51,537 nucleotides of DNA from assembly GCA_947260035.1 (NCBI GenBank), contig CAMYOO010000008.1:1-51537 (forward strand), written 5' to 3'. Under the pieces are notes generated by a model. The model did no database searches and had not been told where the DNA came from. It saw only the letters and a list, made by a program, of their open reading frames with translations. Of the stretch, positions 7,694-50,203 are shown piece by piece (positions within the stretch are counted from its first letter, which is position 1; each line of letters opens with the position of its first letter). Made by a program: the position numbers and the translations under genes. The DNA is from an uncultured delta proteobacterium. Its GTDB lineage: Bacteria > Myxococcota_A > UBA9160 > JAFDET01.

Positions 7694-8254
7694 CTACTCC
7701 AGGACCAGGACCAGGTAGCCCTGGACTTCGCGGGTGCCGTCGTAGATGGGAGACTCCAGCAGCAGCCGCTCGGGCTCGCCGGCGCGCCACGAGACCACCG
7801 AGCCCAGCGCGGCGGGCACGGCCTCCTCGGTGAGCACCGGGATCGAGGGCAGCACCACCGCGCCCAATGTGTCGGCAATGGCCGACGCATAGTGCGAGAC
7901 CAGCATGTTGCCCGCCTCGCGCACCGCCGACTCCACGGCGGACTCCAGCTCGTAGGCCTCGGCGCCCATCATCTCGGTCACGATCACTTCCAGCGACGCG
8001 CGGGAGAAGACCACGGCCATCATGCCGCCCACGCCGCCCTGGAGCTCGAAGAAGATCGCCGTGCCGTCCTCGGCCAGAGCCGCGGCGCGCGGAACGGTTT
8101 CGGCGTCGACAGGCTGCGCTCGAGGCGCGTCCATCCAGATGGTCCGGTTGATCAGGCGCGCGAGCGCGCCGGCCGCATGACCCGCTCCGATGCTGGCCAG
8201 CTCTCGCGCGCGGTCGAGCCGGGGCGGCTGCACTTCCGGCGAGAGCTCGCTCAT
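7694..8254 (-). CDS. CheC/CheX/FliY-family CheY-P phosphatase-like protein
   Basis: Two copies of the family motif at exact spacing: DRARELAS-x22-P (Asn replaced by Ser) and SAVREAGN-x22-P (canonical S-x3-E-x2-N-x22-P). ATGA overlap with the cheA stop. Confidence 0.8.
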   Translation of the reverse strand: MSELSPEVQPPRLDRARELASIGAGHAAGALARLINRTIWMDAPRAQPVDAETVPRAAALAEDGTAIFFELQGGVGGMMAVVFSRASLEVIVTEMMGAEAYELESAVESAVREAGNMLVSHYASAIADTLGAVVLPSIPVLTEEAVPAALGSVVSWRAGEPERLLLESPIYDGTREVQGYLVLVLE

Positions 8255-9387
8255 ACCAGCTGCCCCACGTCCAGCAGGAAGACCGGCCGGCCGTCGCCCA
8301 GCACCGTGAGGCCGGCCAGCGTGCGCAGCCCTGCAAAGAGCGGCGGTACCGGCTTCACGTAGATTTCCTGCTGGCCGTCGAAGCCGTCGGTGCGCAGCGC
8401 CACCCGTTGACCCCGCAGCTCGACGATGGCCAGGGCCGCCAGGGCGGGCCGCTCACCGCGCCGGGCCCAGCCCAGGCAGTCCGCCAGGTCCAGCACCAGC
8501 AGCGGCTCGTCGTCCACCATCACGAAGGCCTCCTGTCCGGCCTCCTCGATTTCCGATTCGGGCACCTCGACGAGCCGCTCCACCTTGGAAACGGAAAGCG
8601 CCACCGCTTCACCCGCCGCCTCGACCAGCAGCACGCGCTGCACCGCGGCGGTCACCGGCACCACCAGCGCGGTCGAAGTCCCGTGACCGGGCTCGCTGGC
8701 GATCTCGATGTGCCCGCCGAGACTTTCGATGGTGGTCTTCACCGCATCCATGCCGACGCCGCGGCCGGAGATTTCGGAAACACGACCCGCCGTGGAGAGA
8801 CCCGGCCGGAACACCATGGCCGCGATCTCTTCCGGCGGCAGGTCGTCGGCCAGGTCCGGATGGATGATGCCGGCCGTGACGGCCCGGGCGCGCACGCCGT
8901 CCAGGTCGATCCCGCGCCCGTCGTCCGACACGGCGATGCGGATCGAATCGCGTTCGCGGCGCGCGGCGATCTCGATGCGCCCGATCTCCGGCTTCCCCGA
9001 AGCGCGCCGATCCTCGGGCGACTCGATTCCATGATCCACGGCGTTGCGGACCAGATGGCCCAGGGGATCAGCCAGACGGTCCAGGATCGAGCGGTCCAGC
9101 TCCAGCTCGGCCCCGCTGATCTCCACCTCGACCTGACGGCCGCAGCGCTGCGCCACGTCTCGAGCGACCCGCGGCAGCGTGTCGATCACCCGCAGCAAGG
9201 GTGTGGTGCGAAGCGCCATGGCGCGCCGCTGCAGCTCGCCCACCACGCGCTCCATGCGGTCGAAGCCGGTGGTCAGCGCTCCGCGCCGCGGACTCTCCTG
9301 GGTGGCCGCGGTCGTGCGCAGCTGATTGGTGCTGAGGATCACTTCGCCGACGGCGGAGAGGAAGCGATCGAGGGTATCGGTGCGCAC
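8251..9387 (-). CDS. cheA: CheA histidine kinase core (P3 dimerisation, P4 HATPase, P5 CheW-like); frame stays open upstream to the A8 run at 9495-9502
   Basis: N box HLVRNAVDHGIE, G1 DDGRGID, G2 GRGVGMD, and a C-terminal CheW-like domain. The first in-frame start (GTG 9387) falls inside the conserved P3 opening (VRVRTDTLDRF). The upstream in-frame sequence encodes a P/A-rich linker with no stop. Confidence 0.9.
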   Translation of the reverse strand: MRTDTLDRFLSAVGEVILSTNQLRTTAATQESPRRGALTTGFDRMERVVGELQRRAMALRTTPLLRVIDTLPRVARDVAQRCGRQVEVEISGAELELDRSILDRLADPLGHLVRNAVDHGIESPEDRRASGKPEIGRIEIAARRERDSIRIAVSDDGRGIDLDGVRARAVTAGIIHPDLADDLPPEEIAAMVFRPGLSTAGRVSEISGRGVGMDAVKTTIESLGGHIEIASEPGHGTSTALVVPVTAAVQRVLLVEAAGEAVALSVSKVERLVEVPESEIEEAGQEAFVMVDDEPLLVLDLADCLGWARRGERPALAALAIVELRGQRVALRTDGFDGQQEIYVKPVPPLFAGLRTLAGLTVLGDGRPVFLLDVGQLV

Positions 9388-9482
9388 CCGTACCTGCGGC
9401 GGCGGGACCGGGGCCGTCGGACTCTCGGAGGCGCCGGCGTCCGACGTCGGCGCGGCGGCCCGCGCGGGCGGCTCTGCGCCGC

Positions 9483-9890
9483 CTAGATCAGAGCTTTTTT
9501 TTCGGTGTCGTCCGCTTCGGAAGGAGACTCGAGGGCCGCCAGGAGCGCGGCGTCTCCGTCCGGCGCGTCTCCGGTTTCCGCCACGCTGGCCAGCATGGCT
9601 TCGAGCACTTCGAGGCCGCGGAAGAGCAAGGGCAGGTCGTCGGCGCTGCCGATGCGGCCGGCCGTGCGGACCGATTCCATGCGGTCCTCCAGGCGGTGCG
9701 CGAGCAGCGAGATCGACTCGTACTCCAGCGAGGCCGCCATGCTCTTCATGGAGTGGACCATGCGGAACACGGTCTCGATGGACGGGCGGGACGCCGGATC
9801 CTTCTCCAGCTCCAGCAGTGAGCGGCTCATCTCGGCGAGGTTCTCGATGCCCTCTTCCAGGAAGAGCGCCCGATACTTCGTCATGTCCAC
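9483..9890 (-). CDS. cheA: CheA P1 (Hpt) domain, terminated 3 codons after an A8 run
   Basis: Hpt signature FRMVHSMKSMAASL (phospho-His). The ORF ends ...ADDTEKKALI*. The kinase frame is the -1 frame relative to this ORF. Confidence 0.9.
   Translation of the reverse strand: MDMTKYRALFLEEGIENLAEMSRSLLELEKDPASRPSIETVFRMVHSMKSMAASLEYESISLLAHRLEDRMESVRTAGRIGSADDLPLLFRGLEVLEAMLASVAETGDAPDGDAALLAALESPSEADDTEKKALI
9495..9502 (-). repeat. A8 homopolymer (T8 on + strand) forming A-AAA-AAA-G in the Hpt frame; candidate slippage or indel site
   Basis: Read directly: gag c tttttttt cgg on the + strand. No comparable A/T run was noticed elsewhere in coding sequence of this window. Confidence 0.95.
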
Positions 9891-9894
9891 GAGA

Positions 9895-10266
9895 TCAGTC
9901 CTGCTTCTCGAGCGCCTTGCGAAGCGTGACGACCACGGCGTCCGGCTTGAACGGCTTCACGATGAAGTCCGACGCACCGGCCTTGAGCGCTTCCATGACC
10001 AGGGCTTCCTGGCCGAGTGCGCTGCACATGACGATCTTTGCGCCCGGGTCGAGCTGGATGATCTGCTTGACCGCCTCGATGCCCGACATCTTCGGCATCA
10101 CGATGTCCATCGTGACGATGTCCGGACTGTGTTCCTTGAACGCCGTCACCGCGTCGGTGCCGTCGCCGGCCTCCGCAATCACATCGAAGCCCTCGGGCTC
10201 GATGATCTCGCGGATCATCTCACGCATGAACGATGCGTCGTCCGCCACCAAGGTTCTCGCCTTCAT
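9895..10266 (-). CDS. cheY: CheY response regulator (single REC domain)
   Basis: [13 protein letters not shown]...DIVTMDIVMPKMSG...IVMCSALG...DFIVKPF has all canonical REC residues. GGGGGAGG sits 4 nt upstream of ATG 10266. ATGA overlap with the cheW stop. Confidence 0.93.
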   Translation of the reverse strand: MKARTLVADDASFMREMIREIIEPEGFDVIAEAGDGTDAVTAFKEHSPDIVTMDIVMPKMSGIEAVKQIIQLDPGAKIVMCSALGQEALVMEALKAGASDFIVKPFKPDAVVVTLRKALEKQD

Positions 10267-10751
10267 GTCGCCTCCCCCCACTGTTCGGATTCGTTGAAAC
10301 CAGGCTCGGCCGAGCGGGCCACCAGCGCCGCCGCTCGATCGCACAGGTACTGCGCATCCAGGATCCCGATGACGCGCCCGTCGATGGGAAGCCGCGCCGT
10401 CACCGGCTCCGGCTGCCGGCTGGCCGGCGGCGGTGCGTTCACCAGGCCCAGCACGCGACCCACCGGAAGTCCAAGGCGCGGCGTATCGCCACCGTCGGCC
10501 GCCACCACCACCACGTGCTCGGGCAGCGCGCCCTCTTCAGCAGCCACGTCCAGCAACGCTGACGGGGAGACGATGGGCAGGGCGTCGCCGTGGTAGTGCA
10601 TGACGCCGCCCAGTGAGCGCGGCAGGCTGGGCACCGGCCCGATGCGCCCCACCTCGGTCACCTCGAACACGTCGAGGATCGGCAGGGCGAACGGGGAGCC
10701 ACTCACCTCGAAGGTCAGCCAGCGCTCGTCGCGAGGTTCGGACGCGCTCAC
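10263..10751 (-). CDS. cheW: CheW coupling protein
   Basis: CheW-like domain ([21 protein letters not shown]...[19 protein letters not shown]). GTGA overlap with the MCP stop. Confidence 0.85.
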
Positions 10752-12049
10752 GGCGTCTCCTCCGAGCCGCCGGTCCGGAAGCTCTGCAGCACGCCGCGCA
10801 GCTCGTCGGACAGACCGGTCACGCTCTGGGTCGAGCTCACCAGCTCTTCCATGGCAGCGAGCTGCTCGCCGGTGGTCTCCACCACTTCCTCGGTGGCCTT
10901 GGCGTTCCCCGCCGCCACACGCGCGATCTCGTCCATGGAGGACACCATCCGCGACGCGTCCCGGGTCTGGGTATCCGCCTTCAAGAAGATCTCCTCGGCG
11001 CGGTCCGACGCCTCACCGACGGCCGAGGCAATGTGCTCCAGGGACGACGCGATGGTGTTCACGTCGTCGCGGCCCTCGTTGATCACCTGGCCGGACATGC
11101 GCATCTCGTCGGCCACTTCCTGGGTGTCGGTCTGGATCTCGTGGATGAGCTTCGAGATCTCCTCACCACTGCGAGTCGCGTTCTCGGCCAGCTTGCGGAT
11201 CTCGTCGGCCACCACGGAGAAGCCGCGCCCGGCCTCTCCGGCGCGAGCCGCTTCGATGGAGGCATTGAGCGAGAGCAGGTTCGTGCGCTGGGCGACGCCG
11301 GTGATGATCTCCAGGATCTGGTGCACCTGACCGGTCTTCTCTTCCAGCGTGAAGACCTTGGCGCCCGACTGCTCGACCCGTTCGAATACGGTGCGCATCT
11401 TCTCCAGCGCCAGCCGCGAGACGTTGACGCCGGTGTTTGCCTTCTGGTTGGCTTCAGCCGCAAAGCCGAAGGCCTCGCGCGCCCGCGAAGCGTTCTCCTC
11501 GATGGCGCGGGCGATCTCGCCGATCAGGCCGCTGGCCTCCAGGAGCATCGCCTGCTCCTGGGACACGCTGCTCGCCAAGCCGGACACGGTGCTGGAGATT
11601 CCCTCGTTGTTGGACGAGAGCTCCTGTGCGGAACGAGCCAGATCCTGGGCGGCCGTGGAGGCGCGATCCGCGGTGGTCTGCACGTGGCCCACCAGCTCGC
11701 GCAGTCGCGCGGCCATGGCCTGGATGCTGCGCGCCAGGTCGTGGGTCTCGTCTTCGAAGCGGCCCGAACGCACGTCGACGCGCGCAGTCAGGTCGCCGCC
11801 GGAGATGCGATCGGTGGCACTGCGCAGCGACTGGAAGTTGTCTGTCAGCTCGCGGGACAGGAAGAAGCCCATCACCCCGCCCAGGCCGAGCGCGGCGAAG
11901 AACGAAACCCACGGCGCCACGGGAATTCCGAAGGCACCCACCAGACCCGGGAAGCCGATGGCGGCGGCGGCCAGGCACGTGGAGCCCAGCACGAACTTGT
12001 ACGTGAGCGAGAGACGCACCCCGGGCTCATCGGCAGCCGATCTGCCCAT
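10748..12049 (-). CDS. Methyl-accepting chemotaxis protein: 2 TM helices with a ~6-residue loop, HAMP, and signalling domain
   Basis: Highly conserved MCP hairpin tip: [42 protein letters not shown]. The two adjacent TM helices leave no room for a periplasmic sensor domain. Confidence 0.92.
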
Positions 12050-20724: not shown

Positions 20725-21375
20725 CTAGCCGTCCTCGCTCTTCTCCTCCCCGGAGCCCTCGCCGGGACCTCCGGAGACCACCACCCGGGCCGGCCTCAGC
20801 AGCCGGTCCCGAAGCCGGTAACCCTTCTGAAACACCTGCAACACGGTGTTCACGGGCGCCGACTCATGAGACTGTTGCGTCATCGCCTCGTGGAACTCCG
20901 GATCGAAGTCCTTGCCTTCCGCCTCGATGGGTGCCAGTCCGTACTGTTCGAGAGCCCCGAGAAGCTCTCGCAGTACGAGTTCGACACCCTGCAGAAGTCC
21001 TTCCAAGTCCCCGGTCTGGCTACCCCGAGCATGCTCGATGGCGCGCTCCAGGTTATCGACCGTCGGCAGCAGGTCCTTGACGATATTCTGGTGGCCGTAG
21101 CGGAACGCCTCCTCCTTTTCCCGGAGGGTCCGCTTGCGGAAGTTCTCGAAGTCGGCCTGGAGGCGCAGGAGCCGATCGTTCAGCTCGGCGGTTTCGCCCT
21201 CGCCTGCCGGCCCGCGACGCTCGTCCTCGCGGGCCTCGACCGCCTCCATGGCCTCGCGCATGGCCTCTTCCAGCTCGGCGTTGGGCGCCAGGGAGCCTCC
21301 TTCGGCCTCCTCGGACAGGGACTCCCAGCCTTCCGTGCCTTCTGCGCCTTCCAGATCCGTTTTTTTCTCGCTCAC
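20725..21375 (-). CDS. grpE: Nucleotide exchange factor GrpE
   Basis: LRLQADFENFRKR...P.DPEFHEAM....VLQKGY.L.DRLLRPA.V. Confidence 0.93.
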   Translation of the reverse strand: MSEKKTDLEGAEGTEGWESLSEEAEGGSLAPNAELEEAMREAMEAVEAREDERRGPAGEGETAELNDRLLRLQADFENFRKRTLREKEEAFRYGHQNIVKDLLPTVDNLERAIEHARGSQTGDLEGLLQGVELVLRELLGALEQYGLAPIEAEGKDFDPEFHEAMTQQSHESAPVNTVLQVFQKGYRLRDRLLRPARVVVSGGPGEGSGEEKSEDG

Positions 21376-46576: not shown

Positions 46577-47632
46577 TCACGCAGCGTCGAAGAGAACCTG
46601 CAGGCTGGTTGCGTACGGCGCGCGCGCGATGCCCCGCTCGGTGACGATGGCGCCGACGAGCGCTGCGGGCGTGACATCAAAGGCTGGATGGCGCACGGGA
46701 ACACCCTCCGGCATCACGAGTTGACCGCCGAAGTGCGTCACTTCTGCCGGCCCGCGTTCCTCGATGGGGATCGCGGCCCCGTCGGGAGTCTCCAGATCGA
46801 TGGTGGAGAGCGGCGCCGCCACGTAGAACGGAACTGCGTGCTCACGAGCCAGCAACGCCACCGTATAGGTTCCGATCTTGTTGGCCACGTCCCCGTTGCG
46901 TGCGATGCGATCCGCGCCCACCACCACCAGATCCACCTCGCCGCGTGCGATCAGGTGGCCCGCCATGTTGTCGGTAATCACCGTGACCGGGATGTCGTCC
47001 CGGGCCAGCTCCCAGGCGGTGAGCCGGGCGCCCTGGAGGAAGGGTCGAGTCTCGTCGGCCAGGACTTCCACGCGGCGGCCTGCCGCCACGGCAGAGCGGA
47101 CTACCCCCAGCGCTGTGCCCCAGCCCGCAGTGGCCAGGGCGCCGGCGTTGCAGTGGGTGAGGATTCGCGCACCGTCGGGGACCAGCTCCACCCCGGCAGC
47201 GCCCAGCGCACGACAGATTGCGATGTCTTCGTCCACGAGTGTACGCGCCTGTCGCACGACCTCCGCCCGCACCGCATCGGCGTCGGCCCCTTGCGCGCCG
47301 CAGGCCCGCTCCAGAACCTCGCGCATGCGCCCCAGCGCCCAGAAGAGGTTGACCGCCGTGGGCCGCGTGCGAGCCAGGCGTTCGATGGCGGCCAGGCAGT
47401 CGCTCCGAATTCCTTCGGGCTTCTCCGCGGGACTGCGCGCCGCCGCCAGGGCCACGCCCAATGCGGCGGCGCAGCCGATTGCCGGCGCACCGCGCACCGC
47501 CAGGTCCTCGATGGCGCGCGCTACGTCCTCCACGCTGTGGAGCGCGAGGTAGATCTCCTCCGCGGGGAGCTTGCGCTGGTCGAGCAGTTCGACCACCCCG
47601 TCGGCCCATCGCAACGTGAACCAGTCACTCAC
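46577..47632 (-). CDS. mtnA: S-methyl-5-thioribose-1-phosphate isomerase
   Basis: LDQRKLP......[21 protein letters not shown] and GADRIA.NGD.ANKIGTY. GTG 47632 has AGGAAA upstream. GTGA overlap with the upstream gene's stop. Confidence 0.9.
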
Positions 47633-48750
47633 GGCTTGCTTTCCTGTGCACACGGATCCGCGCCGGATCCGCCGGCCCCCCCCGCGCCGATCTCGACCTT
47701 CACGTGCTCCAGGTCGTAGCGGCCGTCCCGCGACACGAGCTTCCCCGCCGCCGTGGCCGGCATGCCCGATGGCTTCCGGAATGCAACCGAGCCGCCGGTT
47801 TGCAGCTCCGCCGCGCTGGCGTCCAGATGGAACGGCCCGGCAAAGGGCGGGCCCGTGAGCGTCGCCTCCAGGGTCAGGTCGCCCTCGGCCCGAAGCTCCT
47901 CCACGTCGAGAACCGCGTTGGAGAGGCGCAGCCCCAGCGCCAGCCGATCCGTCTCTCCGGCCGCGCCGAGGAGATGGATCTTCCCGTCTACCGCGCCCGA
48001 CAATGCCTGGCCGCGGCGCAGATACGAACGCAGCGGAGCAAGACCGACACCGGAGAGCTCGAGGCAGAGGTCTACCGAGCGGTCCAAGCCCGCCACGCCG
48101 CTTCCCAGGATGCGGCCCGACCCCGCCAGCGTCCCAACCACCTCCAGATGGATGGGCCCGCCGGGCCCTTCGGCCTCGGCGCTGCCCGAGACGGGGCCCA
48201 GGTCCCAGGTCACCGGGGGCGAGACCGCGCTGTCATGCAGCACGATTCGCACGTCTTTCAGGGTGACGCGCTTGACGCCGAAATCCGGCTTGAGGCTGCG
48301 CTGCTTGCGCTCGGCATCGGACTTCGGCTCGCGCTCGGCCGGCTCCGGCTTCTCTTCCTTCTCCGGCGCACGCGGCCACTGGATCCCGTCGGACGTTCGC
48401 TCCAGGCGCAGCGTGGCGCCCTGGACTTCGAGCGAATCGACCACCACGGCCCCGACCAGCAGCGGAAGGAGCGAGAGCCGCAAGCCGATGGACTGCGCTT
48501 CGGCGAAGGGAGGTGCATCGGCCGTGGCCCCGGAGAGGCTGGAGCCGACCAGCTCCACCCGCGGTGGCAGGACGCGAAGCTGCAGGTCCTGCCACGCGAC
48601 CTCGCGGCCGGTCCGCTCCAGGACTTCGCGCGTGACCCGCTCGCGCACGTCGTCGCCGCCTACCAGACGGGGGAGCAGGATGGATACCGCCGCCAGCAGC
48701 AGGACCAGCAGACCCAGTACGATCGCGCCTGCGCGCATCACGCGAGCCAT
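47629..48750 (-). CDS. AsmA-family (DUF748-like) membrane-anchored protein
   Basis: N-terminal TM anchor ([22 protein letters not shown]) followed by a repetitive beta-rich region typical of AsmA-like proteins. Shorter than classical AsmA. Confidence 0.55.
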
Positions 48751-48754
48751 GGAC

Positions 48755-50203
48755 TCAGCCCTCCAGCTTTCGGGCCAGAATCTCGCGAACCGCCGGCGGG
48801 CTGGCCTTGCCCTGGGTCCGCTTCATCACCTGTCCCATGAGGAAGTTCAGCACCTTGGTCTCGCCGCCGCGATAGCGCTCGGCCATCTCCGGGTTCTCGG
48901 CCAGCACCTGGTCCGCGGCCGATTCCAGAACGCCAGTGTCGGATACGGTCTCGAGGCCGCGCTCACGGATCAGCGCTTCCGGATCGCCACCCTGCTCCGA
49001 AAGCTCGCGCAGCACGTCGCGCGCGCTCTGGGGCGTGACGCGCTCGGCATCCACCAGTCCGATCAGCGCAGCCAATGCAGCCGGCTCCAGACGCGTCGCC
49101 TGGATGTCTCCCTGGCCTTCCTTGAGTACGGCGGCCACGTCGCGCAGCATCCAGTTGGCCACGCTGCGGGCGTTCCCGTGCACACGAATGGTCGCCTCGA
49201 AGAAATCCGCAAGCGCCGGGCTTTCGGTCAGGGTCTGGGCGTCTCCGGCCGCCAGCCCATAAGACTCCTGGAACCGAGCCCGCTTGAGGCCCGGCAGCTC
49301 GGGCAGGTCGTCGCGCACCTGCGCGATCCAGGCAGGGTCCAGGTCCAGCGGAATCAGGTCCGGGTCCGGGAAGTAGCGGTAGTCGTCGGCGTTCTCCTTG
49401 ACGCGCATGAGCTGCGTGCGTCCGCTCTCCACATCGAAGAGCATGGTAGCCTGGACGATCTCGCCGCCGTCGTCGAGGACATCGGCCTGACGCACCATCT
49501 CCGCGTGAATGGCGCCCTCGACGCTGCGGAAGGAGTTCAGGTTCTTGGTTTCGGTGCGGGTCCCCAGCGTCTGGCTTCCCGGCCGGCGCAACGACAGGTT
49601 CACATCGCAACGCATCTGGCCTTTTTCCATGTCCGCGTCGGAGACGCCCGTGTAGCGGAGGATGGCGCGCAGGGCGCGCAGGAAGGCGCTGGCCTCGTCG
49701 GCGGAGCGAAGCTCCGGCTCGGAAACAATCTCCACCAGCGGAACCCCGGCGCGGTTCAGATCCATGTGCGACTCGCCGGCCGTCTCCCAATCTCCATGCA
49801 CCGACTTGCCCGCATCTTCCTCCATATGGATCCGGGTCAAGGAGACGGTCCGGACGCCGTCGTCGTCGGTCGCGATATCGACGGTTCCACCGCTGACCAA
49901 CGGATCTTCGAACTGTGAAATCTGGTAGCCCTTGGGGAGGTCCGGGTAGAAGTAATTCTTGCGCGCAAAGACCGAGCGCGGGTTCACCTTGCCGCCAACC
50001 GCCAGTCCGATACGCACCGCCCGCTCGACGGCGCCGCGATTCAGGACCGGAAGGGCGCCCGGCAGCGCCAGGCAGACCGGGCACACCTGGTGATTCGGTT
50101 CGCAGCCGTAACGAACCGGGCAGCGGCAGAAGAGCTTCGAGTCGGTCTTCAGGTGCACGTGCACTTCGAGGCCGATGACCGGCTCCCAGTCCGCCGCGCT
50201 CAC
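48755..50203 (-). CDS. gatB: Asp/Glu-tRNA(Asn/Gln) amidotransferase subunit B
   Basis: [32 protein letters not shown] and the C-terminal GatB/YqeY domain. Confidence 0.96.

Follow-up and report, generated by a model that had tools for sequence, protein, structure and literature searches.

A conserved A-run between the phosphotransfer and kinase frames of cheA as a probable programmed recoding site

Does a chemotaxis kinase gene that is divided between two reading frames still encode a single protein? The question is raised by cheA in a 51,537-nt stretch of DNA from an uncultured delta proteobacterium (contig CAMYOO010000008.1; hereafter, the window), where the phosphotransfer part of the gene (Hpt, or P1) ends shortly after a run of eight adenines (A8) and the kinase core lies in the -1 frame. 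Such a break could reflect a miscalled homopolymer, a mutation that silences or switches the gene, a division into two independently translated proteins, or recoding. Comparing the locus with its relatives, we consider it highly likely that the A8 run is a programmed recoding site within a single gene. The parts of cheA in question are these:

9483..9890, minus strand: Hpt (P1) open reading frame (ORF), zero frame; 135 aa, the product of standard decoding; Pfam Hpt, E=2.6e-11
9495..9502, minus strand: A8 run, putatively slippery; in-phase heptamer A_AAA_AAA at 9501-9495, read as GA-A AAA AAA and then G (9503-9494)
9483..9485, minus strand: zero-frame stop TAG, three codons past the run; the -1 frame reads CTA-GGC there
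9467..9483, minus strand: GC hairpin GGCGGC-gcaga-GCCGCC, separated from the run by 11 nt on the 3' side and starting with the G of the TAG stop
9394..9495, minus strand: Pro/Ala-rich linker between P1 and P3, in the -1 frame only (SSDLGGAEPPARAAAPTSDAGASESPTAPVPPPQ); no start codon
8251..9393, minus strand: CheA kinase core (P3 dimerisation, P4 HATPase_c, P5 CheW-like), -1 frame; Pfam H-kinase_dim, HATPase_c, and CheW, and homologues
8251-8253, minus strand: kinase-frame stop TGA

The initial annotation had described cheA as split at A8 with its kinase core in the -1 frame, and every coordinate it gave was confirmed. The Hpt ORF holds the phospho-accepting His in VHSMKSM (H46, invariant among relatives) and ends in GAC ACC GAA AAA AAA GCT CTG ATC TAG. 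The kinase frame is open from 9894 to 8251-8253, with an upstream stop at ~9896, and the ORF listing bore out that it has no ATG, GTG, or TTG ahead of the GTG at 9387, which already lies within VRVRT, where P3 opens. As first suggested, slippage by -1 at the run would rebuild a full-length kinase: the resulting product has 546 aa and carries four Pfam domains (Hpt, H-kinase_dim, HATPase_c, and CheW), with no P2 domain detected by Pfam on the fused protein. Taken together with its che-operon neighbors, a fused protein with a phospho-His-bearing P1, P3, P4, and P5 has the makeup of a CheA. Its predicted junction reads ...EKK-SSDLGG..., with the tryptic junction peptide SSDLGGAEPPAR, and is identical whether the ribosome or RNA polymerase slips. 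Since the -1 frame of the window is open for ~390 nt upstream of the A8 run, ORF overlap alone cannot place the shift.

The run itself is conspicuous. The window has a GC content of 70%, and the A8 is, in keeping with the initial annotation, its longest A/T homopolymer, the only others of at least 6 nt being one T7 and one A6. The heptamer stands in phase with the upstream ORF, as a slippery site of the form X_XXY_YYZ requires, both in the window and in 57/57 relatives; this part of the earlier reading held, while its likening of the site to the A_AAA_AAG of dnaX did not, the heptamer being A_AAA_AAA followed by G.

To compare relatives, we scanned metagenomes with an alignment of the Hpt parts, which yielded 75 loci at 50-83% identity; the distinct set comprised 60 junction segments and 57 linkers, the latter from 57 distinct relatives with 50-84% Hpt identity. 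Exact-sequence searches found neither the Hpt ORF nor the kinase ORF of the window on record. The protein clusters closest to the window kinase were kinase-only ORFs of 378-382 aa (P0001, 94% identity, 30 members; P0105, 77%). When the fused window protein was used in tblastn, the Hpt part lay in a frame f and the kinase in frame f-1 in nearly all loci with both parts, the exception among A-run relatives with both parts visible being L003, which is in frame. An A8 was present at the homologous site in L002, L004, L008, L090 (plus six similar places), and L091, reading GAA AAA AAA GCC CTG ATC TAG, and an A7 in L001 (GCA AAA AAA GCG CTT CCG TAG) and L005 (CCA AAA AAA GTG CAC CCC TAG); in all of these the kinase is in the -1 frame. 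Overall, an in-phase A_AAA_AAA was found in 57/57 distinct frameshifted relatives, mostly as A7 and otherwise as A8, A9, or A10, with the zero-frame stop three codons past the run in most and one codon past it in several. In L025, L052, L045, and L041, the -1 frame opens just 15-33 nt upstream of the run and the zero-frame stop follows 1-3 codons downstream, confining the shift to the run. In the main clade of relatives, 28/28 distinct sequences were A7 and frameshifted, and duplicate contigs had identical runs. The comparison of orthologues that the initial annotation had proposed shows A-run and frame break to be conserved in 57 distinct relatives; this and the purifying selection on the kinase described below support its suggestion of programmed recoding.

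The cassette is also widespread. A protein search with the main-clade Hpt gave 1048 hits at E<=1e-10, and among the matches listed (best 120 of 1048) all were Hpt-only ORFs of 140-190 aa from metagenome-assembled genomes (MAGs) and metagenomes. Source names of the relatives, where given, were bacterium, Deltaproteobacteria, Myxococcota, or similar. A scan of a genome collection, which used strict patterns and matched two MAG species only, identified no cultured carrier. L027 and L078, which belong to the same Hpt subfamily but are in frame, lack the A-run.

Several relatives depart from the common layout. In L037, L043, L063, and L067 there are two zero-frame stops (GTC TAG AGC TAG), a new one at codon 1 and the ancestral TAG kept at codon 3, and in L039 the TAG has changed to CAG so that the zero-frame stop is reached only 9 codons downstream. 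Extra frame breaks occur at sites other than the A-run: L003 has a second one in P5 (L003:2500-2730), the -1 ORF of L016 ends after 85 codons, L066 gives three tblastn segments in differing frames, and an internal segment is deleted from the Hpt ORF of L091 (L091:1-311). These could be assembly artefacts or decaying alleles.

Codon choice at the junction suggests that its nucleotides matter. Lys is encoded by AAG in 77% and AAA in 23% of cases in these genes; nevertheless, the junction always has AAA AAA. Similarly, CCA accounts for 5% of Pro codons, yet it is the codon ahead of the run in 34/57 relatives, and CTA for 1.2% of Leu codons, yet it is the -1-frame codon overlapping the zero-frame TAG or TAA in 42/57. 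The latter makes sense only if the zero-frame stop itself is selected. As judged from these rare codons fixed in place, the junction is under nucleotide-level selection.

If the run were under-called and truly A9, cheA would be an ordinary single ORF, as the initial annotation had allowed. Homopolymers are error-prone on some platforms, and one contig of the family ends inside the run (L010:1050-1058, ...CCA AAA AA), where its assembly broke. However, the window's lineage is represented by at least 12 independent contigs, from JGI, NCBI, and other assemblies, every one of them with A8, and a -1 shift is equally required in relatives with A7, A9, and A10. Other lineages have in-frame A8 and A10 alleles that were assembled normally, other homopolymers of the window leave their ORFs intact, and a conserved zero-frame TAG, kept at the cost of a rare CTA, would be unexplained if that frame were never read. 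An error at this site is thus effectively excluded.

We then asked whether the kinase part is expressed. Between pairs of frameshifted lineages, the ratio of nonsynonymous to synonymous substitution rates (dN/dS) of the kinase was 0.05-0.24; for the window kinase, it was 0.12 vs. L002 and 0.20-0.24 vs. L001 and L005. That of the Hpt part between frameshifted lineages was 0.04-0.33. These values indicate that the kinase part is under purifying selection, i.e., that it is translated and that the gene is not dead. Purifying selection is, however, equally compatible with independent translation, in which case there would be no recoding but a split system: a free Hpt protein and a P1-less kinase, the latter started by internal initiation or by reinitiation after the TAG, with phosphorylation of P1 in trans as for Rhodobacter CheA3/CheA4. 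In all these assemblies the gene callers report two ORFs, and liberated P1 is known to be phosphorylated in trans in E. coli and Rhodobacter sphaeroides; both points speak for such a system. On the other hand, the window kinase frame has no ATG, GTG, or TTG from ~9896 to the GTG at 9387, within P3. Of the 57 linkers, 18 (the window's included) have no start codon at all, and no start position is conserved. VRVRT opens with GTG in 27/57 only (GTA in the window), and in 30/57 the first P3 codon is a non-start (GTT, GTC, GTA, CTG, or ATC). A Shine-Dalgarno (SD)-like motif (GGAG, GAGG, or AGGA) 4-18 nt upstream of P3 was found in 0/57 loci.

The linker itself also bears on this alternative. From run to P3 it varies greatly, spanning 16-117 codons; its -1 frame is open in 57/57 relatives and its +1 frame in 25/57, while the zero frame always contains a stop. 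Third-position changes in the -1-frame linker were in modest excess (p=0.07; leaving out the first 45 nt, p=0.018), a weak support. Since there is no conserved start, no SD motif, and an open -1 linker, independent translation of a P1-less kinase is unlikely. A split system would also leave unexplained both the fixed rare-codon A-run and the presence of the run in in-frame relatives, and we regard it as improbable. Some linkers carry in-frame tandem repeats, i.e., APSRGGVPEETPA x2 in L001 (L001:3880-3990) and PAPVSDSPGPTD x3 in L039; that of L056 also contains a repeat.

Relatives in which cheA is a single, uninterrupted ORF proved informative. Among 115 full-length in-frame homologues, the corresponding site of the linker is KK or KKK in 41. 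In L083, found in five independent assemblies, an A8 is in frame (CGA AAA AAA AGC CCT GAG CTA GAG); the sequence equals that of the A7 main clade plus one A, and both alternative frames stop after 2-3 codons. L088 and L089 have an in-frame A10 and L003 an in-frame A7, and in L088 and L003 the -1 frame stops after two codons. The strong hairpin is kept in L083, L089, and L003 but not in L088. On an approximate neighbor-joining (NJ) tree of kinase cores, frameshifted and in-frame sequences were interleaved. As in-frame and frameshifted relatives alike have the run, the family conserves the slippery run in either arrangement. Slippage in the frameshifted arrangement would make the long form, and in the in-frame arrangement it would make the short form. 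The same two arrangements occur among species in dnaX, according to a 2016 recoding review (PMC5009743).

These relatives also bear on whether the break arose as an indel in a mutable homopolymer, causing loss of function or phase variation, with cheA off in this genome. Homopolymers are indel hot spots, the two states are interleaved on the tree of kinase cores, and L083, which resembles a frameshifted sequence plus one A, implies that the run has toggled over evolutionary time. Within clades, however, the state is stable, as seen in the main clade and in the window's lineage, and no run-length polymorphism was observed among near-identical contigs (the at least 12 of the window lineage and the main-clade duplicates). 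The kinase ORFs are intact, with the low dN/dS given above, the zero-frame stop and the hairpin are conserved, and an A7 is short for a contingency locus. Hence, the option of an inactivating or phase-variable indel, raised by the initial annotation, found no support and is very improbable.

RNA structure downstream of the run was also analyzed. In the main clade, RNAalifold of the 28 distinct sequences gave a 9-bp hairpin just past the stop in which 96% of cells pair and four pairs have double-sided changes. Covariation amounted to 10 compensated cells vs. 2.7 expected, a value that 0/500 shuffles reached, and slid controls collapsed. Family-wide, the 40 nt beginning 5 nt past the run folded at -18.6 vs. 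-11.8 kcal/mol in control windows of the same genes, and this region was more stable than its own control mean in 50/56 loci (Wilcoxon p=7e-10). The window hairpin, at 9467-9483 and 11 nt downstream of the run as originally annotated, was confirmed. In the window subclade (six distinct sequences), all cells (100%) of its 6-bp stem are paired; L001 has a single compensatory change, from G-C to A-U, and L009 a single wobble. Six sequences are too few for covariation to reach significance. Two further structures were considered and set aside. A lower helix, considered as a way to give the main-clade hairpin canonical spacing, was unsupported, with 40-80% of cells pairing and no real covariation, and a three-way junction right after the window run, proposed by RNAfold, was not adopted since substitutions in the closest relatives (L002 and L004) appear, by eye, to break it and its z-score was only -1.0.

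Upstream of the run, the main clade has an invariant GTG GGG GGC GA(A/G) CCA, which pairs strongly with the anti-SD 6 nt ahead of the heptamer; among control windows this main-clade pairing ranks at 0.00-0.08 (GTGGGGGGCGA), and L001 shares the 5' SD-like feature. The invariant G6 of the main clade (e.g., L045:2920-2990; alignment columns 13-18 and 46-48) could also pair with the CCC of the hairpin's 5' arm, and such pairing could form an alternative structure spanning the slippery run. As G6 and CCC are both invariant, covariation cannot probe this pairing.

Which machine would slip is the next question. Recoding may be real and yet be carried out by RNA polymerase, which would add one A to some mRNAs while copying the T8 template, and standard translation of such mRNAs would yield full-length CheA; this sub-mechanism we consider possible but somewhat unlikely as the chief one. 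Programmed transcriptional slippage of the Thermus dnaX and Shigella mxiE type is efficient on A or T homopolymers of about 9 nt. The family keeps pure homopolymers of 7-10 A, not A_AAA_AAG, and a strong hairpin was found in 5/15 of the A9/A10 loci vs. 40/41 of the A7/A8 loci (Fisher p=8e-7, not corrected for phylogeny); that A9/A10 loci often lack the hairpin fits longer runs relying on polymerase slippage. In addition, in-frame A8 and A10 relatives have stops in one or both alternative frames, like Thermus dnaX as described in the review (PMC5009743), which also has A_AAA_AAA as less shifty than A_AAA_AAG in E. coli, and A8 is the shortest A-run with detectable slippage by E. coli RNA polymerase (PMC6260861). 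Most relatives, however, have only A7, below that detection limit (PMC6260861). Moreover, A7/A8 loci including the window carry the conserved hairpin, and often there is an SD-like element too, such as the G-run of the main clade. Both belong to the traits of ribosomal stimulators, and no hairpin 3' of the run can affect the polymerase during its passage over the run. In 55/57 loci the run ends, on its 3' side, at a zero-frame codon boundary; as a sign of ribosomal slippage this phase is weak and was down-weighted since the sites share ancestry. We think that -1 ribosomal frameshifting is likelier than polymerase slippage, although the two are not separable here. It is plausible that an A7 or A8 with a hairpin, sometimes joined by an SD-like element, serves ribosomal slippage, and an A9 or A10 without a hairpin serves polymerase slippage.

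Programmed recoding of cheA would proceed as follows. Standard decoding would end at the TAG three codons past the run and release a free 135-aa P1 (Hpt) phosphotransfer protein. In a fraction of decoding events, a shift to the -1 frame on A_AAA_AAA would lead through the linker into P3-P4-P5 and yield the 546-aa full-length CheA. The shift would most likely be -1 ribosomal frameshifting by tandem re-pairing of two tRNA-Lys, with the conserved downstream GC hairpin as the probable stimulator, and RNA polymerase slippage inserting one A, which would give the same protein, may contribute. In this way, cheA would set the ratio of free P1 to complete kinase. The anatomy is conserved, both parts show selection, and the kinase has no separate start that the sequences reveal; from these we infer that slippage occurs, and its efficiency, the slipping machine, and a role for free P1 are predictions of the same kind.

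A number of observations weigh against this reading. Folded alone, the window region was unexceptional vs. shuffles (z = -1.0). The spacer between run and hairpin measures 11 nt in the window (13 nt for the main clade), wider than in classical stimulators of -1 frameshifting, which are spaced by 5-9 nt; some subclades do have spacers of 5-7 nt. The window lineage lacks the upstream SD-like G-run, its 16 nt pairing with the anti-SD no better than controls (rank 0.47); a 5' SD-like element is optional for -1 frameshift cassettes of the dnaX/IS3 type. No Rfam frameshift-element family was matched by cmscan, whether across the window at the gathering threshold or in 9300-9650 at E<=10. In E. coli, liberated P1 can be phosphorylated in trans by a P1-less CheA, and a split system could work if the kinase core had an unrecognised initiation. 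The work is comparative sequence analysis, and the relatives compared are metagenome assemblies throughout. Finally, A_AAA_AAA is less shift-prone than A_AAA_AAG in E. coli (PMC5009743), and slippage by E. coli RNA polymerase was undetectable on A-runs below A8 (PMC6260861).

The remaining genes of the operon surround the split cheA in the order MCP-cheW-cheY-[hpt|kinase]-cheC/X on the minus strand (Pfam and ORF list), and this chemosensory gene order is matched in L001:

7694..8254, minus strand: cheC/cheX-like phosphatase gene (Pfam); its ATG overlaps the kinase stop (ATGA)
9895..10266, minus strand: cheY-like response regulator gene (Pfam), directly upstream of the Hpt ORF
10263-10751, minus strand: cheW gene (Pfam), a member of the chemosensory operon
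10748-12049, minus strand: MCP gene (Pfam), which completes the chemosensory operon

The ATGA overlap of the kinase stop and the cheC/cheX-like start (8251-8254) suggests translational coupling to ribosomes in the kinase frame.

Elsewhere in the window, an A7 at 21360-21366 on the minus strand, the second-longest A/T run, spans codons 4-6 of grpE (GTG AGC GAG AAA AAA ACG) in frame, and its ORF is unbroken. A C7 occurs in a radical-SAM gene with its ORF intact. A C8 at 47676-47683 (G8 on the minus strand) lies ~50 nt ahead of the stop of a short AsmA-like ORF (47629-48822) and also upstream of the next gene's IF-2B-family domain; no frame break is evident there.

More broadly, the cassette may be an ancient dnaX-like switch that fixes the ratio of P1 to kinase in a largely uncultured, Myxococcota-annotated family, with repeated flips between the two arrangements, possibly two mechanisms according to run length, and a distant hairpin that is possibly a non-canonical or regulatable stimulator. 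We put this forward tentatively, as slightly less likely than not. If recoding of cheA is borne out, some bacteria would deliberately make free P1 beside CheA, which would give a genetic handle on P1 stoichiometry and trans-phosphorylation. The cassette set, conserved across hundreds of protein clusters and in both arrangements, would then also offer natural tests of what makes A_AAA_AAA work, of whether an 11-13-nt spacer can stimulate frameshifting, and of when genomes choose ribosomal over polymerase slippage. At present the annotation of these loci lists two products, an 'Hpt domain protein' on its own and a truncated 'CheA/CheW', and in this form it hides the full-length kinase.

To our knowledge, chromosomal genes of bacteria have yielded few conserved programmed frameshifts, the familiar cases being dnaX, prfB, copA, and csoS2. 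In the literature searched, we found no description of programmed frameshifting or slippage in cheA, the sole cheA match being an unrelated predicted +1 hotspot in the E. coli gene (PMC2790909). Neither the GeneTack survey (PMC3711429) nor the 2016 recoding review, in its available part (PMC5009743), mentions cheA, chemotaxis, or Hpt.

The closest known parallel is E. coli dnaX, whose tau and gamma products arise from a Lys-codon A-run acting as a slippery heptamer. Like dnaX, the cheA locus has a downstream GC stem-loop and, in the main clade, an upstream SD-like G-run, and one gene would give a short and a long product with a common N-terminus. The two differ in that the heptamer is A_AAA_AAG in dnaX and A_AAA_AAA in cheA, and in that the long product of cheA needs the shift while the short one is the zero-frame product. 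The stem-loop of E. coli dnaX lies ~6 nt from its run, whereas the cheA hairpin lies 11-13 nt away and has no Rfam match; the gene, moreover, encodes a chemotaxis kinase. In both genes, related species have the opposite arrangement, as cheA is in frame in L083, L088, and L089 and dnaX varies in this respect (PMC5009743). Thermus thermophilus dnaX, in which an A9 promotes transcriptional slippage, resembles cheA in its pure A homopolymer and in the nearby alternative-frame stops seen in in-frame cheA relatives, and A9/A10 cheA loci are often hairpin-less. In contrast, cheA has a conserved downstream hairpin, and its run is A8 in the window and A7 in most relatives, at or below the length of detectable slippage (PMC6260861).

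Other systems share the outcome more than the mechanism. In E. coli CheA-L/CheA-S and R. sphaeroides CheA3/CheA4, the P1 site is apart from the kinase core or two isoforms come from one locus, but the reading frame is unchanged there, an internal translation start or distinct genes being used instead. CheA-S, furthermore, lacks P1, whereas here P1 alone is the predicted extra product. A change of frame in a phosphorelay gene does yield an HPt-only protein that alters signalling in Yersinia pestis rcsD, although that is a lineage-specific mutation in another pathway and not a conserved slippery cassette (PMC10191623). In E. coli copA, recoding frees an N-terminal domain, CopA(Z), as a small protein that works with the full-length one; however, it is the short product of copA and the long one of cheA that needs the frameshift, and slippery site and protein family differ (PMC5009743). 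The mechanism proposed for cheA is of the dnaX kind.

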